From the NCBI RefSeq assembly GCF_047607185.1, contig NZ_JASGDQ010000086.1, positions 28,478-92,477 of the forward strand: a stretch of DNA of 64,000 bases. Reading direction: 5' to 3'. The notes below the pieces were generated by a model. It saw only the letters and a program-made list of their open reading frames with translations. It did not search any database and was not told the DNA's origin. Source of the DNA: Nocardioides sp. Its GTDB lineage: Bacteria > Actinomycetota > Actinomycetes > Propionibacteriales > Nocardioidaceae. Position 1 is the first letter of the stretch, and each line of letters begins with the position of its first letter. Shown one piece after another: positions 11,604 through 26,406 of this stretch. The translations under genes and the position numbers were made by a program.

Positions 11604-13790
11604 TCACCTCAGGTCGAACCGGTCCGCGTCCATGACCTTCGCCCAGGCGGCGGCGAAGTCCTCGACGAACTTCCGCTGGGCATCCTCGGAGGCGTAGACC
11701 TCGGCCAGCGCCCGCAGCTCCGAGTTGGAGGCGAAGACGAGGTCGTTGCGGGTGCCGGTCAGGGTCTCGCCCGACTCCGTCGTACCGGTGAAGGTCTCGT
11801 TGGAGGAGTCGGTGGCGTGCCACTCCGTGCCCAGGTCGAGCAGCTTGACGAAGAAGTCGTTGGTCAGCACGCCGACCCGGTCGGTGAAGACGCCCGCCGG
11901 CGAGTCGCCGTAGTTGTTGCCGAGGACCCGCAGGCCGCCGATGAGGACGGTCAGCTCCGGCGCGCTGAGGCCGAGCAGATTGGCCTTGTCGACCAGCACG
12001 AACTCCGAGGGCAGCAGTGAGCCCTTGCCGAGGTAGTTGCGGAAGCCGTCCATCTTCGGGCGCAGGTAGTCGAACGACTCGACGTCGGTCTGCTCCTGGG
12101 TGGCGTCGCCACGGCCGGTGGTGACCTCGACGGTAACCGGGAAGCCCGCGTCGGCGGCCGCCTTCTCCACCGCGGCGGCACCGCCGAGCACGATGGTGTC
12201 GGCCAGCGAGATGCCGAACTGCTCCTTGACCGTGGTGAGCGTGGCCAGCACCTCGGCCAGCGCGGCCGGCTCGTTGATGTCCCAGCTCTTCTGCGGCTCC
12301 AGCGCGATACGGGCGCCGTTGGCGCCACCACGCTTGTCGGAGCTACGGAAGGTCGAGGCCGAGGCCCAGGCGGTCTTGACCAGCTGCGGCACGGACAGTC
12401 CGGTCTGCAGGATCGCGGCCTTGACCGCGGCCGGGTCCGCGACCGGCTGACCGGCCGGGATCGGGTCCTGCCAGATCAGGCTCTCCGCGGGCACCTCGGC
12501 GCCGAGGTAACGGGCCTTGGGGCCCATGTCGCGGTGAGTGAGCTTGAACCACGCCCGCGCGAACGCGTCGGTGAAGGCCTGCTGGTCGTCCTTGAACCGG
12601 CGCGAGATCGCGTCCATCTCGGGGTCGACGCGCAGCGCCAGGTCGGAGGTGAGCATCCGCGGCTCACGCCGCCCGTCACCCTGTGCCTGCGGCACCATGT
12701 CGGCGCCACCGCCGTCCTTGGGACGCCACTGGTGGGCGCCGGCCGGCGACTGGAACAGCTCCCACTCGTAGGCGTAGAGGATGTGGAAGAACTCGTTGTC
12801 CCAGCGGGTCGGGTGGTAGGTCCAGGTGACCTCGAGGCCGGAGGTGATGGCGTCGATGCCCTTGCCGGAGGCGTACGACGACGTCCAGCCGAGGCCCTGC
12901 TGCTCGATCGGCGCGCCCTCCGGCTCGGGGCCGACCAGGTCGGCGTCTCCGGCGCCGTGGGTCTTGCCGAAGGTGTGGCCCCCGGCGATCAGCGCGACCG
13001 TCTCCTCGACGGTCATGCCCATCCGGCCGAAGGTCTCCTTGATGTCGACCGCGGAGGCCAGCGGGTCGGGGTTGGCGTTGGGACCCTCGGGGTTGACGTA
13101 GATGAGGCCCATCTGGACGGCCGCGAGCGGCTCCTCCAGGTCGCGCACGCCGGTGTAGCGCTTGTCGTCGAGCCACTCGGTCTCCGGACCCCAGTAGACG
13201 TCGTCGTCGGGCTCCCAGACGTCGGGTCGGCCACCGCCGAAGCCGAAGGTGGGGAAGCCCATGTCCTCGAGTGCGACGTTGCCGGCCAGGATCATCAGGT
13301 CGGCCCAGGACAACGACTTGCCGTACTTCTTCTTCACCGGCCAGAGCAGTCGGCGGGCCTTGTCGAGGTTGCCGTTGTCGGGCCAGGAGTTGAGCGGCGC
13401 GAACCGCTGCTGGCCGGTGCCGCCACCGCCGCGGCCGTCGTGGACGCGGTAGGTGCCGGCGGAGTGCCAGGCCATCCTGATGAAGAGCGGGCCGTAGTTG
13501 CCGAAGTCGGCCGGCCACCAGTCCTTGGAGTCGTGCAGCACGGCCTGGATGTCAGCCTTGACCTCGGCCAGGTCGAGACTCAGGAACGCACTCTTGTAGT
13601 CGAAGTCGGTGCCATAGGGGTCGGCGACGGCGGGGTTCTTCGCCAGGATCTTCAGGTTGAGCCGGTTAGGCCACCACTGCTGGTTGGCGTCACCCCTGGT
13701 GGGGTGGACGAGGGTGTCGTGGGCCACCGGGCATTTGGCCTCGCTCTCCTCGTTGATCTCCGCGAGCACCGCGTCATCGTGGTCAGACAT
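11604..13790 (-). CDS. katG: Catalase-peroxidase
   Basis: RMAWHSAG distal triad, [10 protein letters not shown], proximal [10 protein letters not shown]. Start at ATG 13790 (MSDHDD). Confidence 0.98.
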
Positions 13791-13812
13791 GGGGTTTCCT
13801 TCCCATCGGGGT

Positions 13813-14241
13813 TCAATTCTTGTGGGCAAGACAATCGGGGCACAGGCCCCAGTAGATGACCTCGGCCTCGTCGATCCGGAAGCCGCTGTCGTCCGCAGCC
13901 GTCAGGCAGGGCGCCTCGCCGAGGGCGCAGTCGACATCGCCGATGGCGCCGCAGGAGCGGCACACGACGTGGTGGTGGTTGTCGCCCACCCGGGCCTCGT
14001 AGCGGGCCACCGACCCCGACGGCTGGATCCGCCGGACGAGGCCGTTGAGGGTGAGCGCACGGAGCACGTCGTAGACGGCCTGGTGGGAGACGTCGGGAAG
14101 CTCCTCCCGGACGGCGCCGAGGATGGAGTCGGTGTCGGCGTGCGGCAGCCGGTGCACGGCGCCCAGCACCGCCGTCCGGGGCCGCGTGACACGCAGTCCG
14201 GCGCCTCTCAGCATCTCCTGTAGCCGCAGCGTTCCGAGCAC
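13813..14241 (-). CDS. furA: FurA/CatR Fur-family regulator
   Basis: [27 protein letters not shown] motifs; furA-katG synteny. GTG start at 14241 chosen by analogy with mycobacterial furA. Confidence 0.95.
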
Positions 14242-14260
14242 ACCCCAGTCATATCGGTAT

Positions 14261-14279
14261 TTCTTGAATGAATCAAGAA
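14261..14279. promoter_or_regulatory. FurA operator (AT-rich inverted repeat) over the furA promoter
   Basis: TTCTTGA-ATGAA-TCAAGAA perfect 7-5-7 palindrome overlapping a minus-strand TTGATT -35-like hexamer. Confidence 0.78.
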
Positions 14280-14374
14280 CAACTCGCCCAACGGAGCGGT
14301 CGGCCAGAGCCGTGCCCCGGCGCCGAGGCTCGCGCAGCATCGAGACCCGTGCATCGATCATCTAGGCTCCCGTC

Positions 14375-15610
14375 ATGACCACGGATGGTTCTCAGGACGC
14401 TGCGGCCGCTGCCGCCCCGGCACCGCTGGCTCCGCCGGAGCCGGCCTTCACGCTGACCGCGCCCGAGGCGCCGCAGCCCGTCGTCGAGACGCAGGCGCCC
14501 CGGATGGCACCCCAGGTCTCGCCCGAACTGGTGCCCGAGCTGGACGCCAAGGTCGACGGGTTCCTGACCGCGCTGGCCAGCCAGCCCGCCGGCAGCCCGG
14601 AGTTCGCGAAGCAGGCCGAGAGCGTGCGGACCATGGGCGACGCCGACATCCGGCGCGCCGCGGAGACCTCCAACCGGATGCTCGACCAGCCGGTCAAGGC
14701 GCTCAAGGAGGGCGGCATCTCGCAGGGCTCCTCGGTCGGCAAGACCCTGCTGGACCTGCGGCGTACCGTCGAGGACCTCGACCCCAGCAACGCCACCGGA
14801 ATGAAGAAGCTGCTGAGCAAGCTGCCCTTCGTGGACAAGGTCGAGGACTACTTCCGCAAGTACCAGAGCGCGCAGAGCCACCTCAACGGCATCCTGCACA
14901 GCCTGCGCAGCGGCCAGGACGAGCTCAGCCGCGACAATGTGGCGCTCAACCTGGAGAAGACCAACCTCTGGGAGACCATGGCCCGGCTCAACCAGTACGT
15001 CTACATCGCCGAACGACTCGACACCCGACTCTCGGCGAAGATCGCCGAGTTGGAGCTCTCCGATCCGGAGACGGCCAAGACGCTGTCCCAGGACGTGCTG
15101 TTCTACGTGCGGCAGAAGCACCAGGATCTGCTGACCCAGCTGGCGGTGTCGATCCAGAGCTATCTCGCGATCGACGTGATCATCAAGAACAACATCGAGC
15201 TCATCAAGGGCGTCGACCGGGCGACCACGACGACCGTCTCCGCGCTGCGGACCGCCGTCATCGTGGCGCAGGCGCTCGGCAACCAGAAGCTGGTGCTCGA
15301 CCAGATCACCGCCCTCAACAGCACCACGGGCGGGCTGATCCAGCGCACCTCGGAGATGCTGCGCGAGAACTCCGCCGCCGTGCAGCAGCAGGCCGCCTCC
15401 TCGACGATAGGCATGGCCGAGCTGCAGGCGGCGTTCAACAACATCTACGCCACCATGGACTCCATCGACTCCTTCAAGCTCAAGGCCCTCGACACCATGT
15501 CGACCACGATCGGCGTGCTCGAGACCGAGGTCGCCAAGTCGCGCGCCTACCTGGACCGGGTCCAGCAGCACGACCAGCGCGCCGCCTCCGGTGTCCTCGA
15601 CCTCGGTTGA
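14375..15610 (+). CDS. telA: Toxic anion resistance protein (TelA/KlaA/YaaN family)
   Basis: Helical protein with YFRKYQSAQSHLNGIL, IIKNNIELIKGVDRA, TTVSALRTAVIVAQALGNQKLVLDQITAL blocks typical of TelA; TAGGCT -10 6 nt before ATG (leaderless). Confidence 0.85.
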   Translation: MTTDGSQDAAAAAAPAPLAPPEPAFTLTAPEAPQPVVETQAPRMAPQVSPELVPELDAKVDGFLTALASQPAGSPEFAKQAESVRTMGDADIRRAAETSNRMLDQPVKALKEGGISQGSSVGKTLLDLRRTVEDLDPSNATGMKKLLSKLPFVDKVEDYFRKYQSAQSHLNGILHSLRSGQDELSRDNVALNLEKTNLWETMARLNQYVYIAERLDTRLSAKIAELELSDPETAKTLSQDVLFYVRQKHQDLLTQLAVSIQSYLAIDVIIKNNIELIKGVDRATTTTVSALRTAVIVAQALGNQKLVLDQITALNSTTGGLIQRTSEMLRENSAAVQQQAASSTIGMAELQAAFNNIYATMDSIDSFKLKALDTMSTTIGVLETEVAKSRAYLDRVQQHDQRAASGVLDLG

Positions 15611-15629
15611 GGCGGCAGGGCGTGTTCCC

Positions 15630-16142
15630 GTGGGGCTGACATCGTGGTGGCGCCGGGTGCGCGGCACCACGACCGCGCCCGAGTACGCCGTGCCGGCGGC
15701 ACCGACGGAGCGCGACGTGCTCGCGGCACTGAACCGGGTCAACGACCTGCTGCACGAGGGCGGCGCGCCGCCGGTCGTGGTCTCCCGGGTGGTCCGGATC
15801 GCGCGCACCATCCAGCAGACCCTGCCGCGGCTGCGCGACCTGGGGCTGGGCAGCCAGGAGAGCTATTCAGTGGTGGCCACCGCCACCGACTATCTGCCCG
15901 AGGCGGTCGGCGGCTATCTGCGGCTGCCCCGGGAGTGGGCCGACACCCGACCGGTCGACGGCTCGAAGACCTCGCTGATGCTGCTCGTCGAGCAGCTCGA
16001 CCTGCTCGGCGCGACCATGGACAGGATCTTCGACGCGGCCAACCGGGCCGACGCGCAAGCGCTGGTGGCGCACAGCCGGTTCCTGGAGGCCAAGTTCGGG
16101 CACACCGCGACCGGCGGGGACCTCGGGCTGGGGACGCCATGA
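15630..16142 (+). CDS. Hypothetical helical protein, probable XpaC-like TelA partner
   Basis: ATDYLPEAVGGYLRLP core and position next to telA (xpaC-yaaN pairing is known). GTG start inferred. Confidence 0.6.
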   Translation: MGLTSWWRRVRGTTTAPEYAVPAAPTERDVLAALNRVNDLLHEGGAPPVVVSRVVRIARTIQQTLPRLRDLGLGSQESYSVVATATDYLPEAVGGYLRLPREWADTRPVDGSKTSLMLLVEQLDLLGATMDRIFDAANRADAQALVAHSRFLEAKFGHTATGGDLGLGTP

Positions 16143-17530
16143 CTACGCTGGCCCAGGCGCTGATCTCGCTCGCGTCGGTGGCGGAGGCCGCCGGTGCCGA
16201 CCCGGCGCAGGCGCGGGCCGAGGGCGAGGCGCTGGCCGCCACCGTCTCGGAGCCGGCCCGGGGCGCCTACCTCGACTGGGCCGAGCAGACCGGTCGCACG
16301 CCGTCCTCCGAGACCTACTTCGAGACCGCCTCGCGGGGCCGGCGCTACCGCAGCGCCCCGACTCCGACCATGGCGGCGCTCGCGCTCGCGCGCTCCCCGC
16401 ACGCCCCGGCGTACGCCGCCGCGCTCGGCGAGGTCGCCCAGGCCGGGGCCGGGCTCGGCGAGGCCAATCCGCGCTCGCTCGGCAACGCGGCGATGGCGAG
16501 CGCCGCCCAGCTCGCGCCGCCGGACCCGGACCTCCCCCGGGTCGATGCCCGGGTCGAACAGCGCCCGGGCAGCGTGGCGACAGCGCCCGCTGCCAACCCT
16601 CCGGCTACGCCGCCCGCCGAGGAGCCGGTCGAGGAGCCGGGCAAATCGGTGGAGGAGCTGCTGGCCGAGCTCGACGCCCTTGTCGGGCTGAGGGAGGTCA
16701 AGGCCGAGATCCACCGGCAGGCCGCCGTGCTGCGGGTGGAGGGGCTGCGCCGGGCCGCCGGTCTGGACACCCCGACCATCACTCGGCACCTGGTCTTCAA
16801 CGGCAATCCGGGCACCGGCAAGACCACCGTGGCCCGGCTGGTGGCCGGCATCTACCGTGCGCTCGGCCTGCTCTCCCGAGGCCAGTTGGTCGAGGTGGAC
16901 CGCTCCGATCTGGTCGCCGGCTATCTCGGGCAGACGGCCATGAAGACCGCCGAGGTGGTCGCCTCGGCCGTCGGCGGGGTGCTCTTCATCGACGAGGCCT
17001 ACTCCTTGACCGGCGACCAGTACGGCGCCGAGGCGGTCGACACGCTCGTCAAGGAGATGGAGGACAAGCGCGAGGATCTCGTCGTCATCGTGGCCGGCTA
17101 CCCGGTCCCGATGGCCCTCTTCATCGCGCAGAACCCCGGCCTGGAGAGCCGCTTCCGCACGGTCATCGACTTCGCCGACTACAGCGACGACGAGTTGGTC
17201 GCCATCTTCGTCACTATGGCCGCCGCCGCCGACTACGACCTCGGCGAGACCGACGACGAAGCCGGGGGGACCGGCGAGACCGGCGACGCTGGCCCGAACA
17301 CCGACAACCCGGTCCTCGCCCGGCTGCGTGCCCTGCTGGCGGAGGCCGAGCGCGGCCCGACCTTCGGCAACGCCCGCTATGTCCGCAACCTGCTGGAGGC
17401 CGCCATCGGCCGGCACGCCTGGCGGCTGCGCGAGGTCGAGTCGCCCACCGTCGAGCAGCTCCGGCTGCTCACTCCCGAGGATCTCGCCGACCCCGACTCA
17501 CCCCAGCCCGAATCTCAGGAGGACACGTGA
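16139..17530 (+). CDS. SpoVK/CbbX/EccA-type AAA+ ATPase with unknown N-terminal domain
   Basis: HLVFNGNPGTGKT Walker A, VLFIDEAY Walker B, NPGLESRF arginine finger; ATGA overlap with the upstream gene. Confidence 0.92.
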   Translation: MTTLAQALISLASVAEAAGADPAQARAEGEALAATVSEPARGAYLDWAEQTGRTPSSETYFETASRGRRYRSAPTPTMAALALARSPHAPAYAAALGEVAQAGAGLGEANPRSLGNAAMASAAQLAPPDPDLPRVDARVEQRPGSVATAPAANPPATPPAEEPVEEPGKSVEELLAELDALVGLREVKAEIHRQAAVLRVEGLRRAAGLDTPTITRHLVFNGNPGTGKTTVARLVAGIYRALGLLSRGQLVEVDRSDLVAGYLGQTAMKTAEVVASAVGGVLFIDEAYSLTGDQYGAEAVDTLVKEMEDKREDLVVIVAGYPVPMALFIAQNPGLESRFRTVIDFADYSDDELVAIFVTMAAAADYDLGETDDEAGGTGETGDAGPNTDNPVLARLRALLAEAERGPTFGNARYVRNLLEAAIGRHAWRLREVESPTVEQLRLLTPEDLADPDSPQPESQEDT

Positions 17531-18789
17531 GCGTGAGCCAGGCCGCGCCGGCCGCACCGGCGCCCACCCCGCCCGGCCCAGCCAACCAGCCCACCACGCG
17601 GCAGCCGGCCGGCTTCGTGGACACGCCCGGGCAACTCGACCGCTGGCAGAGCCTCGGCATGGCGGCGGCGATCCTCTTCGGCATCCTCAGCGCCCTGATC
17701 CAGGTGCTCAGCTGGAGTTCCGACGGCCGGGCGGCCGACGACACCGAGCAACTGGTGCGGGTGCAGGAGATCCAGTCCTCGCTGCTCCGCGCCGACGCGT
17801 TGACCACCAACGCCTTCCTGGTCGGCGGACTGGAGGACGCCGACCAGCGAGCCGAGTACGACGCCTCGATGACCGAGGCACTCCAGCTGATCACCGACGC
17901 CGCGGACGCGCAGCCGGCCGACCGGGCCGCGCTGGCCGCGCTCAACGTCGAGGTGAGCGACTACACCACGGCCGTCACCCAGGCCCGCACCAACGCCCGG
18001 CAGGGCTTCCCGGTCGGCGCCGCCTATCTCACCGAGGCCGGCGACGGCCTGCGGGGAGAGGCGCTGCCGATCCTGGACAAGCTCGTCGAGGCCAACACCG
18101 ACCGGTCCGGCTCGGCGATGTCCGGCCAGCACCCGCTATGGCTGCTGGGCATCGGCGTCCTGGCCTGCGCCACGTTGTGGTGGATCAACCGTGCCCTGGC
18201 CCGGCGGTTCCACCGCCGGGTCAACGTGGGCCTCGCCGTCGCCGCCGCGATCATCGCGGTGCTGACGCTGGTCACCACGGCGCTGGCCCTCGGGCGCGCG
18301 AGCAGCAACGACGACCTGCATGCCGGCGCCTATCGCACCGCCTCGGACGCCGCGACCGCTCGCACCGCGGCCAACGACGCCAAGGCCAACGAGAGCCTGC
18401 GGCTGATCAAGCGCGGGTCCGGGCAGGCCTACGAGACGGCCTGGACGGCGTCGGTCGACAAGGTCGACGCGCTCGGCGTCGGCACCAGCGACTGGGACGC
18501 CTACCTGGCTGCCCATCAGCAGATCGTGGACCTCGACGAGGGCGACCAGTGGCGCGAGGCGGTCACCCTCGCGACCACGTCCGAGGCAGAGGGATCCACG
18601 CCCGCCCTCAACGCCTTCGACACCCATCTGGAGCAGCAGGTGGCCACCGCCGGCAGCACCGCCACCCACGAGCTGCGCAGCGGTCGCGGCGCGGCGCTGA
18701 CGATCGCCGTGCTCACCCTGCTGCTCGGCATCGTCGCCGCCGTCGCCGTCGCGCGCGGCATCGGCACCCGGCGTCAGGAGTTCTCATGA
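17527..18789 (+). CDS. GlnX-like 4-TM membrane protein with two extracytoplasmic helical domains
   Basis: Four hydrophobic segments flanking two helical loops (LLRADALTTNAFL; NESLRLIKRGSG); immediately upstream of a GlnH-like SBP and a PknG-like kinase, as in glnX-glnH-pknG. Confidence 0.75.
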   Translation: MSVSQAAPAAPAPTPPGPANQPTTRQPAGFVDTPGQLDRWQSLGMAAAILFGILSALIQVLSWSSDGRAADDTEQLVRVQEIQSSLLRADALTTNAFLVGGLEDADQRAEYDASMTEALQLITDAADAQPADRAALAALNVEVSDYTTAVTQARTNARQGFPVGAAYLTEAGDGLRGEALPILDKLVEANTDRSGSAMSGQHPLWLLGIGVLACATLWWINRALARRFHRRVNVGLAVAAAIIAVLTLVTTALALGRASSNDDLHAGAYRTASDAATARTAANDAKANESLRLIKRGSGQAYETAWTASVDKVDALGVGTSDWDAYLAAHQQIVDLDEGDQWREAVTLATTSEAEGSTPALNAFDTHLEQQVATAGSTATHELRSGRGAALTIAVLTLLLGIVAAVAVARGIGTRRQEFS

Positions 18790-19736
18790 GAATCGGATTC
18801 GCCCTCGCCGCCCTGGCCGCCGGCCTGGTGCTGGCAGCCTGCGGGTACGACGCCACCGAGGTCCCCACCCCGGCTGCGGCGGACGCCTCGCTGACTCCCG
18901 CGCAGGAGCTGAGCTGCGACAACACCGCCGACTCGGTCCGCTCCTATGCCCCGGACGGCACCACCGACGGACCCGCGCTGCAGCGCATCAAGGAGCGCGG
19001 ACGGCTGATCGTCGGCGTCTCGGCCGACACCTATCTGCTGGGCTACAGCAACCCGTTCACCGCCGAGCTGGAGGGCTTCGACATCGACATCGCCCGCCAC
19101 GTCGCGGCGGCCATCTTCGGGGTCAAGGACGGCAAGGCCGACTCCTACCTCCAACTCCGGGTGATCACCGCCGCGGAACGGGTCAGCCTGCTGGAGTCCG
19201 GCGAGATCGACATGGTCGCCCGCAATATGACCATCAACTGCGAGCGCTGGCAGCAGGTCGGCTTCTCGGCGGTCTATTACGAGGCCGGCCAGAAGGTGCT
19301 GCTGCGCGAGGACCTGGCCGCCGACTACCACGAGCCCGGCGATCTCGACGGTCACACCGTGTGCGCCCCGACCGGCACCACCAGCCTGGACAACATCCGT
19401 GAGCTGGCGTCGGCCGCCGAGGTGGTGCCGGCCACCAACCACACCGGGTGCCTGGTGCTCTTCCAGAACGGCAAGGTCGACGCGATCACCGGCGACGACG
19501 CCGTGCTGGCCGGCCTGGCCGCCCAGGACCCCTACGCCGTCGTACCGGAGCAAGAGGCCTTCACCAGCGAGCCCTACGGGCTGGCCACCAACGCCTCGGA
19601 CGTGGACCTGCTGCGCTTCGTCAACGGCGTGCTGGAGCAGATGGCCGCCGACGGCAGCTGGCAGAGCATCTACGACACGTGGCTCGCTCCGACCCTCGGC
19701 GAAGGCACCCAGCCGACGCCGCAGTACGGCCGGTGA
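18786..19736 (+). CDS. GlnH-like amino-acid-binding lipoprotein (family 3 SBP)
   Basis: Lipobox LVLAAC; GRLIVGV, EGFDIDIA, MTINCER, GKVDAITGDD, EPYG motifs. No permease or ATPase adjacent. Confidence 0.88.
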   Translation: MRIGFALAALAAGLVLAACGYDATEVPTPAAADASLTPAQELSCDNTADSVRSYAPDGTTDGPALQRIKERGRLIVGVSADTYLLGYSNPFTAELEGFDIDIARHVAAAIFGVKDGKADSYLQLRVITAAERVSLLESGEIDMVARNMTINCERWQQVGFSAVYYEAGQKVLLREDLAADYHEPGDLDGHTVCAPTGTTSLDNIRELASAAEVVPATNHTGCLVLFQNGKVDAITGDDAVLAGLAAQDPYAVVPEQEAFTSEPYGLATNASDVDLLRFVNGVLEQMAADGSWQSIYDTWLAPTLGEGTQPTPQYGR

Positions 19737-20860
19737 CCACCGCCGTGGCCGCCACGCCCGCTCCTGCTCCCCCGGGGCGACTCGGCCAGGCGCCCGAGCC
19801 CGCCGAGATCCAGCGCTATCTGGCCGAGCTCGACACCTGGCTGCGCGACCGGCGTGTCGAGCTCGACGAGCTCGACACGGCGGCGCTGGCGGCGGGGCGA
19901 GGCGGCGAGGTGGCCGGCGACATGTCCCTGGCGCTGGCGCTGTGGAAGGCGATCACCGACCGCTACCAGCTCATCTTCGCGACCTGGGACGGCGGCCGGG
20001 TGCTGACCCAGGACCGGGAGCGGATCGCCGGGCTGATCTGGGGCCGGCTCGACGGCGCCAGCGAGATGCCCGGCGGCCTGGCGGTCTCGCTGCCCGAGGC
20101 CTCCCAGCTGCTCGACGCCCTCACCGGGCAGCTGCGCAGCCGGCTCGCGCTGCTGCCGGGCGCCGCCGACGCGGCCGCCAGGGTCAAGAGCCTGCGGGCA
20201 CAGCTGGAGCGGGTCCGCGACCAGGTCGGCCTGGAGCCGGCGCTCACCCGGGACCAGGCCGTCGACCGGCTCGCGGGCCTGCTGCTGCGACTCGACGACA
20301 TCGGCGAGCGGGCCAGCCGCGGCGCCGACGTCGCCGGCCTGCTCGGGCCGCTGGAGATCGAGGCGACCACGTTCGAGCGTGACCTGATCGTCGGTAACGC
20401 CCGCCGCCGCGACGCCCGCGACCAGATCCTCTCCGCGCGCGAGCTGCGCGCGGACCTGGAGGCGCGAGCGGACGCGCTGCGCAAGCTCGCGGAGGTCTGT
20501 GTGACGACCGTCGATCCTGCTCCCAACAACGCCGTCCCCGACGTGGCGGCACTCGGACCGGTGCCGGTCACGCCGGAGGAGATCGGCCCCTACCTGCAAC
20601 GGCTCGACCGGGTCTCCCAGGCGCTGGAGGTGGCCCAGCACCGCTACGCCGACGCGCTGGCCGAGCACACCGCGCTGGTCGAGCTGCTCGACGCCTACCG
20701 CGCCAAGGCCCGAGCGCTGGGCCTGGCCGACTCCGCCGACCTGGCCGAGACCGAGCGCCTGGCCCGCGAGGTGCTGGCCCGTCGGCCGGCGCCACTGGCC
20801 GTCGCCCGGCAGCTCGTCGCCCTCTACCAGACCTGGCTCGACAAGGAGACGCCTCGATGA
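19733..20860 (+). CDS. Conserved-looking hypothetical helical/coiled-coil protein
   Basis: 4-nt overlaps at both ends; high-GC codon pattern; no motif recognised. Confidence 0.75.
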   Translation: MTTAVAATPAPAPPGRLGQAPEPAEIQRYLAELDTWLRDRRVELDELDTAALAAGRGGEVAGDMSLALALWKAITDRYQLIFATWDGGRVLTQDRERIAGLIWGRLDGASEMPGGLAVSLPEASQLLDALTGQLRSRLALLPGAADAAARVKSLRAQLERVRDQVGLEPALTRDQAVDRLAGLLLRLDDIGERASRGADVAGLLGPLEIEATTFERDLIVGNARRRDARDQILSARELRADLEARADALRKLAEVCVTTVDPAPNNAVPDVAALGPVPVTPEEIGPYLQRLDRVSQALEVAQHRYADALAEHTALVELLDAYRAKARALGLADSADLAETERLAREVLARRPAPLAVARQLVALYQTWLDKETPR

Positions 20861-23199
20861 CCGCACCCACTTGCACGCAGCCCGGCTGTACCGGCTCCGT
20901 CGTCGACGGCTACTGCGACGTCTGCGGCATGGCGGGTGCCGCCGACGCTCCCACCCCTCCGACGGCCGGCGGCCGGTGTACGCAGCCCGGCTGCACCGGC
21001 TCGATCCTGGACGGCTACTGCGACGTCTGCGGCTCCCCCGCTGCCGCGGCCGGCTCGGGGTCCGCCGGAGAGACCAGCAGCGCGCCGGCTGGCGTCGGCA
21101 GTGAGCACTCCGTGGTCGCCTCCTCCTCGCGGGTCCAGTCGGCCGCCATCGGCTCGCGGCGCGCCGGGGGCACCGGTGCGACCCGTCGTACCCGCTCGGG
21201 CTCACAGCGGATGCGCGCCGCCCGGCTCGGCGCCGGGCTCACGACGGTGCCGCCGGCGCCGGCCGTCGACGCCGCCAGCGCGATCCTGGCCGACCCGCAG
21301 GTGCCCGAGGAGAAGAGGTGGTGCGCGAAGTGCGGAGCCGCCGTCGGCCGCGGCATCGACGGTACCCCCGGCCGCGCCGAGGGCTTCTGCCCGCAGTGCG
21401 GCAACCCGTTCTCCTTCACCCCGAAGCTGGTCGCCGGCGACCTGGTGGGCGGGCAGTACGAGGTCGCGGGGGCGCTCGCGCACGGCGGACTCGGCTGGAT
21501 CTACCTGGCCCGCGACCGCAACGTCTCCAACCGCTGGGTGGTGCTCAAGGGCCTGCTCAACTCCGGTGACCCCGACGCGCTCGCGGCGGCGATCGCCGAG
21601 CAGCAGTTCCTCGCCCAGGTCGAGCACCCCAATATCGTCGAGATCTACAACTTCGTCACCCACGAGGGTGCCGGCTATATCGTCATGGAGTACGTCGGCG
21701 GCAAGTCGCTCAAGCAGATCCTCAAGCAGCGGATGGCCGACAACGGCGGCGCCTACAGCCCGCTGCCGGTCGACCAGGCGCTGGCCTACATCCTGGAGCT
21801 GCTGCCGGCGTTCGGCTACCTGCACGACCTCGGCCTGGTCTACTGCGACTTCAAGCCCGACAACATGATCCAGGTCGGCGACGCGATGAAGCTGATCGAC
21901 CTCGGCGGGGTGCACCGCATCGACGACGAGGACTCGGCCATCTACGGCACGGTCGGCTATCAGGCGCCGGAAATCGCCGAGGTCGGCCCGAGCGTGGCCT
22001 CCGACATCTACACCATCGGCCGCACCCTGCTGGTGCTGTGCATGGAGTTCCGCGGCTATCAGGGTCGCTACCTGCACAGCCTGCCGGACGTGGCCGACAC
22101 GCCGCTGTTCCAGGACTACGACTCGCTGTACTGGCTGATCGCCAAGTGCTGCGCCCCCGACCCGGCGGACCGGTTCGCCTCGGTCGACGAGCTGCGCACC
22201 CAGATGCTCGGCGTGCTCCGCGAGGTGGTGGCTCGCAACCATGCCGGTCCGGCGACCACCTCCACCGCGTCGGTGCTCTTCGAGGCACCCGCCACCGCGA
22301 GCCCCATCACCGAGTGGACTCAGCTGCCGCGGCTGCGCGAGGACGTCACCGACCCGCAGTACGCCTGGCTGACCAGTATCCGCTCCGATGACCCGGCCGA
22401 GCACCTGCGCAACCTGCAGGATGCCCCCGCGGACTCGGCCGAGGTCTGGCTGACCCGGGCCCGGGCGGCGCTGCTGGTGGGCGACGCCGCTGCCGCCCGC
22501 CAGGCCACCGAGGCGCTGCTCGCCCAGGACCCGTGGGAGTGGCGGGCGCTGTGGCTCGACGGGCTCGCCGCCGTCCGCGCGGCGGACTGGGACGCCGCGA
22601 AGGCGGCCTTCAACGCCGTCTACCAGCAGGTGCCCGGCGAGCTGGCCGCCAAGCTCGCCCTCGCGCACGCCTGCGAGCAGGGCGGCCTCCCCGAGGTCGC
22701 CGAGAGCCTCTACCAGGTCTGCGTCCAGACCGACGCGGCCTACGTCGCCCCCGCCGCGTTCGGGATGGCCCGGGTGCGGGCCGCCCGGAGCGAGGTGACC
22801 GCCGCCGTCGAGGCGCTCGACCTGGTGCCGACGACCAGCCGGGGCTATCTCGAGAGCCGGCAGCTGCGCGCCGAGGTGCTGCTCGACGACACCTCCGCCT
22901 CCGCCGCGCCCGGACAACGGCTGGCCGTGCTCGACCAGGCCATGCGCACCATCGAGCAGGCCCAGCTCGACGGGCCGACCAGGCAGCGGTTCGCGGTCCG
23001 CATCCTCACCGAGGCGCTGCCTGTCGTGCAGGGTCAGGCCGCGGCCGGGACCATCGGCTCGGTGCCGGCCACCGAGACCGGCGTCCGGGACGGCCTGGAG
23101 CGGGCGCTGCGAGCACTGGCCCGCGACGCCGGGGAGGTCGAGGAGCGGGTCGACCTGGTCAACCAGGCCAATGCGGTGCGGAACTGGAGCCTGACGTGA
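20857..23199 (+). CDS. pknG: PknG-like soluble Ser/Thr kinase (tandem Cys4 ribbons, rubredoxin-like domain, non-RD kinase, TPR-like C-terminus)
   Basis: GGLGWIYL glycine loop, VVLKGL, YCDFKPDN non-RD catalytic loop, IDLG, GTVGYQAPE; CAKCG...CPQCG rubredoxin-like motif; helical repeat tail. Confidence 0.88.
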   Translation: MTAPTCTQPGCTGSVVDGYCDVCGMAGAADAPTPPTAGGRCTQPGCTGSILDGYCDVCGSPAAAAGSGSAGETSSAPAGVGSEHSVVASSSRVQSAAIGSRRAGGTGATRRTRSGSQRMRAARLGAGLTTVPPAPAVDAASAILADPQVPEEKRWCAKCGAAVGRGIDGTPGRAEGFCPQCGNPFSFTPKLVAGDLVGGQYEVAGALAHGGLGWIYLARDRNVSNRWVVLKGLLNSGDPDALAAAIAEQQFLAQVEHPNIVEIYNFVTHEGAGYIVMEYVGGKSLKQILKQRMADNGGAYSPLPVDQALAYILELLPAFGYLHDLGLVYCDFKPDNMIQVGDAMKLIDLGGVHRIDDEDSAIYGTVGYQAPEIAEVGPSVASDIYTIGRTLLVLCMEFRGYQGRYLHSLPDVADTPLFQDYDSLYWLIAKCCAPDPADRFASVDELRTQMLGVLREVVARNHAGPATTSTASVLFEAPATASPITEWTQLPRLREDVTDPQYAWLTSIRSDDPAEHLRNLQDAPADSAEVWLTRARAALLVGDAAAARQATEALLAQDPWEWRALWLDGLAAVRAADWDAAKAAFNAVYQQVPGELAAKLALAHACEQGGLPEVAESLYQVCVQTDAAYVAPAAFGMARVRAARSEVTAAVEALDLVPTTSRGYLESRQLRAEVLLDDTSASAAPGQRLAVLDQAMRTIEQAQLDGPTRQRFAVRILTEALPVVQGQAAAGTIGSVPATETGVRDGLERALRALARDAGEVEERVDLVNQANAVRNWSLT

Positions 23200-24317
23200 C
23201 CACGACCCCGACCGCCGCGGCGGCGGCGTGCCCGGCCTGCGGCGCGAGCGTCCCGCCGAGGGCCCGGTTCTGCGAGTCCTGCGGCGCCGGCCTCGATCAG
23301 GCCGCCGGGGGCGCGGCGAGCCCGACCACCCCCGACGCTGCCGAGGACAGTCACGAGATCGCTCCGATCAGCGCGCCCACCCGGCGGCCGTCGGGCGCGC
23401 TGCCCGACCCCCAGGTCCAGGCCGGCGCCGTGGACCGCTGCGCCGACTGCGGTGCCACGGTCGGGCCGGACGGCTACTGCACCGAGTGCGGCGCCAAAGC
23501 GCCCAGCCCACGCGACCACTTCCGCGAGCAACCGGCCAGCTGGGTCGCGGGGGTGTGCGACAAGGGCGTCGGCAAAGCCGGCAACGAGGACGCGATGGCG
23601 CTCCTCGCCGGCCGCGAGCCTGGCTCGCGGGCGGTGCTGATCGTGCTCGACGGGGTGTCCAACTCGCTGCACTCCGCCAAGGCGTCCCTGGCCGGGGCGA
23701 AGGCCGCCCGCGACGTGCTCCGGCTGCCGCTGCCGACCGGACTCGGCACCCCCGCCGGGCGTGAGGCCGCCGTGACGAAGGTGCTCACGACCGCGGTGAG
23801 CGCCGCCAACAACGCCATCGTCGCCGGCACCGACCCCGGCTCGCCCAACCCGGCCTCGGCGACGATCGTCTTCGCCGTGCTGGAGGGCCGCCGGATCCAC
23901 TATGCCGGGGTCGGGGACTCACGGGCCTACTGGCTGCCCGACACCGAGCCCGGCGTCCAGCTGACGGTCGACGACTCGCTCGCGCAGGACCAGATCGCGG
24001 CCGGCGTGCCGCGCCAGGACGCCGAGGCCTCCCCCCAGGCCCACGCCATCACCAAGTGGCTCGGCCGCGACGCGGAGGACATCGCGCCCCGGATCGGCCA
24101 CCTCGACGTCACCGCGGCGGGCTGGCTGCTGGTCTGCTCCGACGGGCTGTGGAACTACGCCTCCGAGCCGGCCGCGCTGCAGCGGCAGATCGCCGCCAGC
24201 GGTACGACGGACCCTGCCGAGCTCGCGCTCGCCCTGGTCGGTTTCGCCAACGCCGCGGGCGGGCATGACAACATCACCGTCGCCCTGGCTCGCGTCAAGG
24301 CCGAACTCGACGGGTAG
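23196..24317 (+). CDS. PP2C/PPM Ser/Thr phosphatase with N-terminal double zinc ribbon
   Basis: NED, VLDG, GDSRAY, CSDGLW, GHDNIT metal motifs; CPACG..FCESCG and CADCG..YCTECG. Confidence 0.92.
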   Translation: MTTTPTAAAAACPACGASVPPRARFCESCGAGLDQAAGGAASPTTPDAAEDSHEIAPISAPTRRPSGALPDPQVQAGAVDRCADCGATVGPDGYCTECGAKAPSPRDHFREQPASWVAGVCDKGVGKAGNEDAMALLAGREPGSRAVLIVLDGVSNSLHSAKASLAGAKAARDVLRLPLPTGLGTPAGREAAVTKVLTTAVSAANNAIVAGTDPGSPNPASATIVFAVLEGRRIHYAGVGDSRAYWLPDTEPGVQLTVDDSLAQDQIAAGVPRQDAEASPQAHAITKWLGRDAEDIAPRIGHLDVTAAGWLLVCSDGLWNYASEPAALQRQIAASGTTDPAELALALVGFANAAGGHDNITVALARVKAELDG

Positions 24318-24346
24318 GTTGGCCGACACCACACTGCACGGAGAGG

Positions 24347-25648
24347 ATGGCCATGGCCGAGTTCACCGCCGCCGTCTACCAGAACGAGTTCCTGCCCGAC
24401 GGCGGGACCGACGTCCATGCCATCGTCACCATCACCAGCTCGGGGGCGGGCACGGCCGGGCAGTCCGGCTCGGGCGAAGCCGGCGAGATCATCATCGTCG
24501 ACACCTCCGGGTCGATGGGGATCGAGACCATGGCGGCGGCCCGGGATGGCGCCCAGGCGGCGCTCGCGGAGATCCTCGACGGCACCTGGTTCGCCGTCGT
24601 CGCCGGGACCGACCAGGCAGCTCTGGCCTATCCTCCCGTGCGCAGCGGCCCGGGCCTGGTGCGGATGTCGGAGGCGACCCGGCACGAGGCCGCCACCGCG
24701 ATCGGCAAGCTCAAGTCGGGCGGCGGCACCGCCATCAGCACCTGGCTCGATCTAGCCGGCCAGCTGTTCAGCTCGGTGCCGGAGGTCACCCAGCGGCATG
24801 CGCTGTTGCTCACCGACGGCGAGAACCAGGAGAGCGGCAGCCTCCTCGCCGATGCGATCGGGCGAGCCACCGGCTACTTCCAGTGCGACTGCCGGGGTGC
24901 CGGGACCGACTGGAAGGTGGCCGAGCTGCGCACCATCGCCCAGGCGCTGCTGGGCACCGTGGACATCATCCCCGCGCCCAAGCAGATGCGGGCGCAGTTC
25001 CAGGAGATCATGCGGGCCTCGATGGCGCGCGGCATCGCCGACGCGAAGCTGCGGGTGTGGGCGCCACAGGGTGCCCAGATCCTGTTCGTCCGCCAGGTCG
25101 CTCCCACGCTGGAGGAGCTCACCGACCGTCGCGTCGAGGTCAATCCGCTGACCGGCGACTACCCCACCGGGGCATGGGCCGACGAGTCCCGGGACTATCA
25201 CATCGCGGTCCGCGTCGCCGCCAAGGCGATCGGCCAGGAGCAGCTCGCCGCCCGGGTGCAGCTGGTGCTGCCCGGCGCCGAGCCGGAGGTGGCCGCCCAG
25301 GGTCTCGTCAAGGCGACCTGGTCGAACAACTCCGAGCTCACCGCGCGGATCGACCAGCAGGTCGCGCACTACACCGGACAGGCCGAGCTGGCCGCCGCGA
25401 TCCAGGAGGGTCTGGCGGCTCGGGCCGCGGGCGACGACGCCACCGCGACCACCAAGCTGGGCCGGGCGGTGCAGCTCGCCGCCCAGACCGGCAATGAGGA
25501 GGCCACCACCCGGCTGCGCAAGGTGGTCGACATCGAGGACGAGGCCGAGGGCACCGTGCGACTCAAGCGGACGGTGGACAAGGCCGACGAGATGGCCCTC
25601 GACACCGCCTCCACCAAGACCACCCGTATCGGGAAGAGCGGCACCTGA
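24347..25648 (+). CDS. von Willebrand factor A domain protein
   Basis: MIDAS IIVDTSGSM, GGGT, LLTDGEN. Start is ATG 24347 or 24353. Confidence 0.92.
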   Translation: MAMAEFTAAVYQNEFLPDGGTDVHAIVTITSSGAGTAGQSGSGEAGEIIIVDTSGSMGIETMAAARDGAQAALAEILDGTWFAVVAGTDQAALAYPPVRSGPGLVRMSEATRHEAATAIGKLKSGGGTAISTWLDLAGQLFSSVPEVTQRHALLLTDGENQESGSLLADAIGRATGYFQCDCRGAGTDWKVAELRTIAQALLGTVDIIPAPKQMRAQFQEIMRASMARGIADAKLRVWAPQGAQILFVRQVAPTLEELTDRRVEVNPLTGDYPTGAWADESRDYHIAVRVAAKAIGQEQLAARVQLVLPGAEPEVAAQGLVKATWSNNSELTARIDQQVAHYTGQAELAAAIQEGLAARAAGDDATATTKLGRAVQLAAQTGNEEATTRLRKVVDIEDEAEGTVRLKRTVDKADEMALDTASTKTTRIGKSGT

Positions 25649-26406
25649 TGTCGAGCCCTCACCGGTGTCCCGCCGGGCACGACTCGGCCGCCGAGGACTA
25701 CTGCGACGTCTGCGGCCTGGCGATCCTCGCCGGGGCTACGACGAGCGCCCCGCCCGTGCCCGACCCGGTCGCGGAGTCGGCCCAAGCGTCGACCGTGGCG
25801 GGCGATGCCCAGGCGGCGCCCGCCACGCCAGTCACGGCCCAGTGCCCCAGCTGCCAGGCCGACAACCCGGCCAATGCGCTGTTCTGCGAGGCATGCGGCT
25901 ACGACTTCACGACCGGCAGCCTGCCCCGCCCGGCGGCCCCGCCAACGAGCACGCCAGCGGCCACCCCGCCGAGCAGCCCCGGCGAGGTCGCTCCGCCGCT
26001 GCCGGACGGCTGGGTGGCGGAGGTCTGGATCGACCCTGACTGGTATGTCGACCAGGCCAGCACCGACCCGCTCCCCTCGGCCGGCGCCCCCGTCGTCGTA
26101 GCGCTGCGGGCGACCTCGATCCTGATCGGCCGCACCTCCCAGAGCCGCAACATCCATCCCGACCTCGAGCTCGGCTCCGATCCGGGCATCAGCCGTCGAC
26201 ACTGCCAGCTCACCACCGACGGCACCCGCTGGTGGGTCGAGGATCTCGGCTCCTCCAACGGGACCTATGTCGGGGCCGCCGTCGGCGGGCTGCCGACCGC
26301 GCCGGTCCAGCCGGGCACCAAGCGCGAGATCGGCCCCCAGGAATGTCTCTTCCTCGGCGCTTGGACGCGGGTCGTGCTGCGCCGGGCAACGCCGGGCGAG
26401 ATCTGA
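25648..26406 (+). CDS. FHA domain protein with N-terminal zinc ribbons
   Basis: IGR, SRRH, DLGSSNGT phosphothreonine-binding residues; CPAGH..YCDVCG and CPSC..FCEACG. Confidence 0.93.
   Translation: MSSPHRCPAGHDSAAEDYCDVCGLAILAGATTSAPPVPDPVAESAQASTVAGDAQAAPATPVTAQCPSCQADNPANALFCEACGYDFTTGSLPRPAAPPTSTPAATPPSSPGEVAPPLPDGWVAEVWIDPDWYVDQASTDPLPSAGAPVVVALRATSILIGRTSQSRNIHPDLELGSDPGISRRHCQLTTDGTRWWVEDLGSSNGTYVGAAVGGLPTAPVQPGTKREIGPQECLFLGAWTRVVLRRATPGEI

Follow-up and report, generated by a model that had tools for sequence, protein, structure and literature searches.

The Ser/Thr kinase PknG has been heavily studied, for its part in metabolic control in Corynebacterium and as a virulence factor and drug target in Mycobacterium tuberculosis. 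In those PknG papers that were searched as text, the N-terminal extension of this kinase is called divergent and disordered, and the searches found no mention of zinc, of ribbons on the extension, of Streptomyces or of Nocardioides. In the archaeon Sulfolobus acidocaldarius, ArnC, a Hanks-type kinase with TPR repeats, phosphorylates the C-terminus of the von Willebrand factor A (vWA) protein ArnB (PMC5300886). A 2026 co-crystal structure showed the zinc finger of ArnA docked on the beta-sandwich and the helical bundle of unphosphorylated ArnB, and the FHA domain takes over on ArnB once ArnC phosphorylates the helical bundle (PMC12852372). The present analysis concerns an operon within a 64-kb stretch of DNA of Nocardioides sp. 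(contig NZ_JASGDQ010000086.1; the whole stretch is called the window), in which the genes for a PknG-type kinase, a PP2C phosphatase, a vWA protein and an FHA protein follow one another, and three of the four proteins carry short cysteine-based ribbons. Our judgement leans modestly towards these ribbons being tethered docking tags that hold the PknG, PP2C and FHA proteins on one vWA-centred assembly.

The four genes and the sites analysed within them are located in the window as follows.

20857-23199, plus strand: PknG-type Ser/Thr kinase of 780 aa (Pfam PknG_rubred, Pkinase and PknG_TPR).
20872-20928, plus strand: kinase type A ribbon copy 1, CTQPGCTGSVVDGYCDVCG, right at the N-terminus, with Met as the next residue.
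20977-21033, plus strand: kinase type A ribbon copy 2, CTQPGCTGSILDGYCDVCG, from the repeat comparison.
21322-21402, plus strand: PknG rubredoxin-like CxxCG...CxxCG site of the kinase (C156, C159, C178 and C181; PF16919).
23196-24317, plus strand: PP2C phosphatase of 373 aa (Pfam DZR and PP2C_2; NCBIfam Stp1_PP2C, 101 bits).
23229-23285, plus strand: PP2C type B ribbon (ribbon 1), CPACGASVPPRARFCESCG (Zn_Ribbon_1, 27.3 bits, cut-off 25).
23439-23492, plus strand: PP2C type A-like ribbon (ribbon 2), CADCGATVGPDGYCTECG, conserved in 66 loci.
24347-25648, plus strand: vWA protein of 433 aa (Pfam VWA_3 and VWA_3_C).
25648-26406, plus strand: FHA protein of 252 aa (Pfam FHA and Zn_Ribbon_1).
25666-25716, plus strand: FHA type A-like ribbon (ribbon 1), CPAGHDSAAEDYCDVCG, with Cys-His-Cys-Cys as ligands.
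25843-25899, plus strand: FHA type B ribbon (ribbon 2), CPSCQADNPANALFCEACG, which aligns to the ArnA zinc finger.

The kinase begins with two type A ribbons on flexible linkers, followed by the rubredoxin, kinase and TPR domains (PF16919, 87 bits, E 7e-25; PF00069, 98 bits; PF16918, 174 bits), and its best match in the PDB is PknG of M. tuberculosis (2PZI, E 3e-139). The rubredoxin site aligns with the rubredoxin of M. tuberculosis PknG, and its four Cys are invariant in 55 orthologues. The two ribbon copies are identical at 51 of 57 nucleotides and 17 of 19 amino acids, as given in a preliminary description of the window, and the likeness stops at the ribbon edges. The 19 nucleotides that the same description found common to the kinase and FHA genes were likewise recovered (CTACTGCGACGTCTGCGGC, at 20910, 21015 and 25698); with the codon usage of the operon, two independent YCDVCG peptides have about a 10% chance of identical codons. 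The motifs described for PP2C and FHA and the rubredoxin site of the kinase are in place. The further claim that kinase, phosphatase and FHA protein all bear the same two types of Cys4 ribbon holds for the phosphatase and the FHA protein, whereas type A is the only ribbon type of the kinase, which has the rubredoxin site besides; the ribbons are of the Cys4 kind except the type A-like one of the FHA protein, where a His replaces one Cys.

The kinase ribbon follows the pattern C-x4-C-x8-C-x2-C (CxQPGCxGxIxDGYCDxCG). Seven of its columns are invariant and another three reach 90% conservation or more, non-ligand residues included: P9, G10, G13, G18, Y19 and G24 are all non-Cys positions that are invariant or nearly so. 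Because the non-Cys positions are as conserved as the Cys, an interface is favoured over a simple thiol sensor. The search of the kinase ribbons against Pfam gave no significant match, the best being Notch LNR (21.1 bits, cut-off 21.2), which we judged spurious. In the AlphaFold2 (AF2) model of the kinase, the predicted local distance difference test (pLDDT) is 86 overall, about 70 in the ribbons and below 50 in the linkers. Within the otherwise disordered tether, the conserved segment SSRVQSAAIGS (window 21124-21156, kinase residues 90-100) reaches a pLDDT of 84; it may fold back on the kinase or TPR domain, or may be a docking or autophosphorylation segment.

In the PP2C phosphatase, the ribbon pair scores above the DZR (PF12773) threshold (40.2 vs 27.3 bits). 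The FHA protein consists of a type A-like ribbon, a linker, a type B ribbon with an invariant YDFTTG tail, a second linker and an extended FHA domain; C7, P8, G10, H11, C19, D20, C22 and G23 of its first ribbon are invariant in 59 orthologues. The type B ribbons of both proteins exceed the Pfam Zn_Ribbon_1 (PF13240) threshold (27.3 bits in PP2C and 27.9 bits in FHA, against 25). The AF2 model of the FHA protein reaches a pLDDT of 86; both ribbons are predicted with confidence (blocks of 84-95), the linkers are disordered, and the ribbons thus look like ordered beads on flexible tethers. A Foldseek search with this model returned FHA domains only and was uninformative on the ribbons.

Directly after the FHA type B ribbon, the motif GYDFTTGxxP (window 25900-25926, FHA residues 85-93) is invariant in the 59 orthologues, with D86, T88, T89 and P93 as its invariant residues. 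The Thr-Thr pair after an acidic residue resembles the ETTS phospho-switch of GarA and OdhI and, by this analogy, could be a kinase target on the FHA protein that enables self-binding by its own FHA domain.

The ribbon classes were compared by the median cross-scores of hidden Markov models (HMMs) between the ribbon families. PP2C ribbon 1 and FHA ribbon 2 scored 31-38 bits against each other, and by this measure the two type B ribbons are one family. The kinase ribbon against PP2C ribbon 2 or FHA ribbon 1 gave 16-19 bits, the median for PP2C ribbon 2 against the kinase-ribbon HMM being 16 bits, and PP2C ribbon 2 against FHA ribbon 1 gave 6-11 bits. As the mutual likeness of the latter two is weak, it is chiefly the kinase ribbon that unites type A, and the border between the classes is soft: on these scores, type A is a looser class than type B. 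The cross-scores between type A and type B were 1-16 bits, the highest (15.8) being that of PP2C ribbon 2 and PP2C ribbon 1. A regular expression for the ribbons, run over the six frames, gave six matches in the window, all in the kinase, PP2C and FHA genes. The number expected by chance is 0.005, as estimated with 200 random sequences drawn from a Markov model that reproduces the trinucleotide composition of the window.

The vWA protein is the sole one of the four without a ribbon. It matches the Catenulispora protein 4FX5 over residues 5-428 (E 4e-110), is about 80% identical across Nocardioides proteins, being the most conserved protein of the operon, and has an intact MIDAS (metal ion-dependent adhesion site) with DTSGS, T126 and D155 invariant. 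The structure 4FX5 has the three-domain fold and the intact MIDAS seen in ArnB and ArnE (Hoffmann et al., PMC6509490). Moreover, the profile of the FHA family compared with the PDB placed the ArnA entries 8S05_C and 5A8I at the top, ahead of GarA and OdhI. The FHA domain part of the ArnA match has an E of 5e-8, and the ArnA zinc finger, KCNLCGYENDDDALFCIKCG, aligns to the FHA type B ribbon with 22 bits (domain E 1e-3). Scored on the ribbon HMMs, the ArnA finger reached 23.7 bits on type B of FHA and 20.2 bits on type B of PP2C, against 0.7-10.5 bits on the type A models.

The helical C-terminus of the vWA protein (VWA_3_C; window 25430-25645, residues 362-433) contains Thr-rich motifs conserved from Nocardioides to Acidimicrobiia, namely TATTKLGR, EATTRLRK, GTVRLK and ALDTASTKTTR. 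They resemble the ETTRR phospho-sites of the ArnB helical bundle.

The four genes form the downstream part of a plus-strand gene run from TelA to FHA, in which stop and start codons overlap or nearly abut. The PP2C gene starts with GTG and overlaps the kinase stop (GTGA), and the vWA and FHA genes overlap at 25648. The G + C content of the window is 69-75%. The upstream genes of the run are the following.

14375-15610, plus strand: TelA (PF05816, E 9e-91), which heads the operon.
15591-16142, plus strand: small open reading frame of 183 aa with no family match.
About 16103-17530, plus strand: SpoVK/CbxX-type AAA+ gene (Pfam/NCBIfam).
17527-18789, plus strand: GlnX (NF058618, 239 bits, just below the 250-bit cut-off).
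18789-19736, plus strand: GlnH (Pfam SBP_bac_3).
19757-20860, plus strand: 367-aa protein between glnH and pknG, whose stop overlaps the kinase start (ATGA).

The 367-aa protein had no match in Pfam, NCBIfam or PADLOC and is kept in nearly all related loci at 31-79% identity. Just upstream of TelA and divergent from it, a furA-katG pair occupies 11604-14361 on the minus strand; it consists of a Fur-family regulator and a catalase-peroxidase-like gene (PF00141 in two stretches, 741 aa). The order TelA, two further genes, AAA+ and GlnX was found again in loci L082 and L083. In L082, a metagenomic copy of the operon, a gene for a low-molecular-weight phosphotyrosine phosphatase (PF01451; 15455-15952) follows the FHA gene and overlaps it.

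A scan with a vWA profile, limited to one genome per species, yielded 80 loci. The order AAA+, GlnX, GlnH, 367-aa protein, kinase, PP2C, vWA and FHA is kept in Nocardioidaceae, in Intrasporangiaceae/Dermatophilaceae and in Cellulomonas and its relatives. Ilumatobacteraceae and other Acidimicrobiia show the same order, with the AAA+ gene missing from the fetched flank, while Actinocrinis and Streptosporangiaceae retain the four downstream genes. All ribbon positions are retained from Nocardioidaceae, Intrasporangiaceae and Cellulomonas to Ilumatobacteraceae and Actinocrinis. CxQPGCxGxIxDGYCDxCG stands at the start of every readable kinase, CPxCG...FCExCG and then C..CGG..(D)GYC..CG occur in every PP2C, and CPxGH...D[YFW]CDxCG and then CPxC...ALFCExCGYDFTTG in every FHA protein. 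The co-conservation of the ribbons across homologous operons, to which the preliminary description attached importance, is thus borne out for kinase, phosphatase and FHA protein alike, in no fewer than two classes of Actinomycetota. Over the six frames of the 80 loci, the matches to the ribbon expression are confined to the kinase, PP2C and FHA genes; in these loci and in the whole window, none fell in TelA, AAA+, GlnX, GlnH, the 367-aa protein or vWA.

The distribution of the kinase-type ribbon outside the operon was analysed by searching 1.84 billion representative proteins with a profile built from 67 kinase ribbons, which at E <= 1e-3 matched only 597 representative clusters. PknG-type kinases, whole or fragmentary, account for most of these, and some matches are frameshifted calls from the operon itself. 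Among the best 150 matches, at least ten depart from this architecture: they are single-pass membrane proteins that carry 2-4 N-terminal ribbons of the kinase consensus and acidic repeats, and that have a single transmembrane helix and, at the C-terminus, a conserved beta-rich domain (among them P0126, P0127, P0131, P0174, P0178, P0184 and P0196). After the acidic repeats these proteins have a motif of the type LPDxVRxxAxxEVxKLERxSDQSPESxDIRxWLDTxLDLPW, which we take to resemble the Lon protease N-domain/AAA junction. One further match is an LCP-family protein (P0217). The gene of membrane protein P0131 (L081:8001-10112) adjoins a sortase gene in a locus of 60% G + C, and no homologue of PknG, vWA or another operon protein was present within 12 kb around it. 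Many other candidates for new architectures, as in P0175 and P0224 from L082 and L083, were discarded as frameshifted or mis-called kinases in the same operon, so that the membrane-anchored family and P0217 are the separate architectures left standing. The occurrence of the kinase ribbon in these two marks it as a distinct, portable module. It is a small domain family of its own, for which Pfam holds no model.

Taken together with the match of type B to the ArnA finger and the 4FX5/ArnB fold of the vWA protein, common docking, which the preliminary description had suggested, is the best-supported reading of the ribbons; its physical contacts and phosphorylation targets are those that we infer. 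The ribbons would be small structural zinc-binding modules on flexible tethers, by which the kinase as writer, PP2C as eraser and the FHA protein as reader would be gathered around the operon's vWA protein. The vWA-FHA pair would be a bacterial counterpart of the archaeal ArnB-ArnA phospho-switch, with the type B ribbon of FHA and PP2C as the equivalent of the ArnA zinc finger, docking on the vWA protein. Since type B is present on both FHA and PP2C, reader and eraser would share a vWA site and perhaps compete for it. The vWA protein would be docking platform and phospho-substrate at once: PknG may phosphorylate its Thr-rich C-terminal bundle, where the FHA domain would then bind. The type A ribbon, present in one to three copies on the kinase and also on PP2C and FHA, may be a second portable docking module for a common partner, for which another face of the vWA protein, the 367-aa protein and GlnX are candidates. 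The input to the assembly would come from the GlnH/GlnX amino-acid sensor.

However, several results weigh against this docking model. The direct sequence similarity of the vWA protein to ArnB is marginal (8S05_A, E 0.12), and the vWA-ArnB link therefore rests on the published structural comparison of 4FX5. The interface of the ArnA zinc finger with ArnB is itself small and weak, about 500-570 Å2 (PMC12852372). The type A ribbons have no characterised relative, and their likeness across the three proteins (the 16-19 bits given above) is modest and partly due to generic zinc-ribbon features. Moreover, since kinase-type ribbons occur on a membrane protein outside any PknG/vWA neighbourhood (L081), their partner need not be the vWA protein.

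A broader version of the docking model is speculative, and we consider it doubtful. In it, the kinase-type ribbon would be a portable docking domain by which PknG, PP2C, FHA and the membrane family all plug into one vWA site; a phospho-switch centred on the vWA protein would have been the ancestral actinobacterial PknG pathway, of which Mycobacterium and Corynebacterium would retain a reduced remnant in their three-gene operon. The invariant Asp before the aromatic residue of the ribbon could then possibly be offered to the metal of the vWA MIDAS.

A different role, that of a collective redox or metal (tellurite) switch, would have the Cys clusters of the three proteins and the rubredoxin site oxidised under stress, or losing or exchanging their metal, with the activity of writer, eraser and reader changing together. 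It would fit the presence of six Cys-based sites in three adjacent proteins, the position of TelA at the head of the operon and the furA-katG pair just upstream, and electrophiles are known to target the PknG rubredoxin domain, whereupon kinase activity is lost (Gil et al. 2013, as cited in PMC8546545). However, a simple thiol sensor needs none of the conserved non-Cys ribbon positions, one ligand of an FHA ribbon is His in 59 of 59 orthologues, and the ArnA zinc finger, the nearest relative to have been characterised, serves as a structural docking module (PMC12852372). The link to TelA is one of gene neighbourhood only, and neither vWA nor PP2C gave a TerY-P match in PADLOC. We regard this switch as unlikely to be the role of the ribbons, though it might coexist with docking.

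Nucleic-acid binding, by which the ribbons would bring the phospho-signalling proteins to RNA or DNA, is in our view very unlikely. In Pfam, the FHA type B ribbon weakly matches a RanBP-type family (E 1e-3 to 4e-3), RanBP2-type fingers are able to bind single-stranded RNA (as cited in PMC6509490), and nucleic-acid binding was raised for the ribbon of the TerY-P kinase by Bell et al. Against this, ArnA and ArnB showed no sign of DNA binding and the zinc finger is occupied by ArnB (PMC12852372), the operon has no nucleic-acid enzyme or regulator in its Pfam/NCBIfam annotation, and the kinase ribbon is neutral to acidic (D17, D21) and lacks a basic patch.

The age of the kinase ribbon duplication was assessed from the 65 kinases with a readable N-terminus, among which the survey of copy number foreseen in the preliminary description gave two copies in 40 loci from several families, one copy in 19 (Acidimicrobiia, Cellulomonas and others), three in two (Lapillicoccus) and none in four, all of them frameshifted or truncated. 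Copy number did not track the presence of the AAA+ gene, as Cellulomonas has this gene yet one ribbon. The flanks are specific to each copy: in the 40 two-copy loci, Met directly follows copy 1 in 32 and copy 2 in nine, and [DEN]G.. precedes copy 2 in 31 and copy 1 in none. The copies are separated by a linker of unrelated sequence and variable length. Copy 2 of the window is nearest to copy 2 of Nocardioides endophyticus (L072; 55/57 nucleotides), closer than to its own copy 1, and copy 1 is as near to copy 1 of Phycicoccus (52/57) as to its own copy 2. Between species, ribbon pairs that share 17/19 amino acids are already identical at 48.7 +/- 2.2 nucleotides, and 20% of them reach at least 51. 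The nucleotide likeness of the ribbons is hence attributed to purifying selection and codon bias, and not to recency. On the survey, the flank signatures and the nucleotide-identity controls, the duplication is old and preceded the split of the families that carry it.

In the two Lapillicoccus kinases (L041:5160-7709 and L043:5125-7059), the third type A ribbon is inserted between the usual copies 1 and 2, which indicates that copy number has changed more than once.

The preliminary description had called the kinase copy recently duplicated, and a recent tandem duplication, or gene conversion keeping the copies alike, might draw on their 51/57 identity, on an identity over shared residues slightly above that expected from codon usage (48 vs 44.3 nucleotides), on even closer copies in some loci (19/19 amino acids in L018) and on one Nocardioides subclade in which copy 2 has copy-1-like downstream residues, but against the two-copy state of several families, the copy-specific flanks, the unrelated linkers and an identity that is ordinary between species it is extremely improbable, and recent duplication was rejected.

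To place the operon among known systems, it was compared with described zinc-ribbon families and with four described signalling arrangements. The type B ribbons and the PP2C pair pass the Zn_Ribbon_1 and DZR models, while the kinase ribbon differs and is of its own family. The TerY-P triad consists of the vWA protein TerY, a PP2C and a Ser/Thr kinase bearing a zinc ribbon at its C-terminus (Anantharaman et al. 2012, in the summary given by PMC10542128). The present operon resembles it in uniting vWA, PP2C and a Hanks kinase, in having a zinc ribbon fused to a component and in its TelA/Ter neighbourhood. Unlike in the triad, the vWA protein is of the VWA_3 plus VWA_3_C (ArnB/4FX5) type, the kinase is PknG and bears its ribbons, which belong to another family, at the N-terminus, there is an FHA reader, and the locus is conserved and chromosomal and is not a defence island. 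In PADLOC the vWA protein had no match, PP2C matched only PDC-M21C (16.6 bits) and the kinase gave generic PD-T4-6 kinase matches. In view of the lack of a PADLOC TerY-P match for vWA and PP2C, the TerY-P label does not fit, and identity with this defence triad was ruled out.

In Deinococcus radiodurans, DRA0331-DRA0334 likewise combine vWA, a Ser/Thr kinase, FHA and FHA-PP2C in one operon, and the vWA protein was suggested by the authors as a scaffold (bioRxiv 10.64898/2026.01.23.701218); zinc did not come up in a text search of their paper. The Deinococcus kinase is a membrane kinase and not PknG, and the phosphatase is tethered via a KI-FHA domain and not a ribbon.

The GlnH-GlnX-PknG-GarA/OdhI system of Mycobacterium and Corynebacterium (PMC6069109, PMC9769921, PMC8546545) shares with the operon the order glnX-glnH-...-pknG, the rubredoxin-kinase-TPR architecture, a flexible extension at the kinase's N-terminus and an FHA-protein partner. 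The operon differs in the 367-aa gene between glnH and pknG, in the one to three zinc ribbons on the N-terminal extension of its kinase, in PP2C, vWA and the ribbon-bearing FHA protein downstream, and in TelA and AAA+ upstream. On the OdhI model its FHA protein scored 25.9 bits against a cut-off of 200. The literature searches found no paper describing this operon or PP2C, vWA and FHA genes downstream of pknG.

The ArnA-ArnB system of Sulfolobus acidocaldarius (kinases ArnC/ArnD, phosphatase PP2A; 5A8I, 8S05; PMC6509490, PMC12852372) is likewise encoded by adjacent genes and pairs a protein made of zinc ribbon and FHA domain with a vWA protein that has a MIDAS, a beta-sandwich and a helical bundle; the type B ribbon of the operon can be aligned with the ArnA zinc finger, and 4FX5 shares the ArnB/ArnE fold. 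The operon differs in being bacterial, in having two ribbons on its FHA protein where ArnA has one, in a phosphatase that is a PP2C, encoded by the operon itself and carrying the same ribbon type, and in a kinase orthologous to PknG that has a ribbon type of its own and is wired to GlnH/GlnX; there is no archaellum. From Nocardioidaceae to Acidimicrobiia, PknG in many actinobacteria is thus part of a larger, tightly conserved operon that brings its own phosphatase, an ArnA/ArnB-like vWA-FHA switch and putative ribbon handles on three signalling proteins. The comparison links an archaeal switch to the bacterial PknG pathway, with a vWA homologue whose structure is solved (4FX5), and defines with the kinase ribbon a new small domain family.

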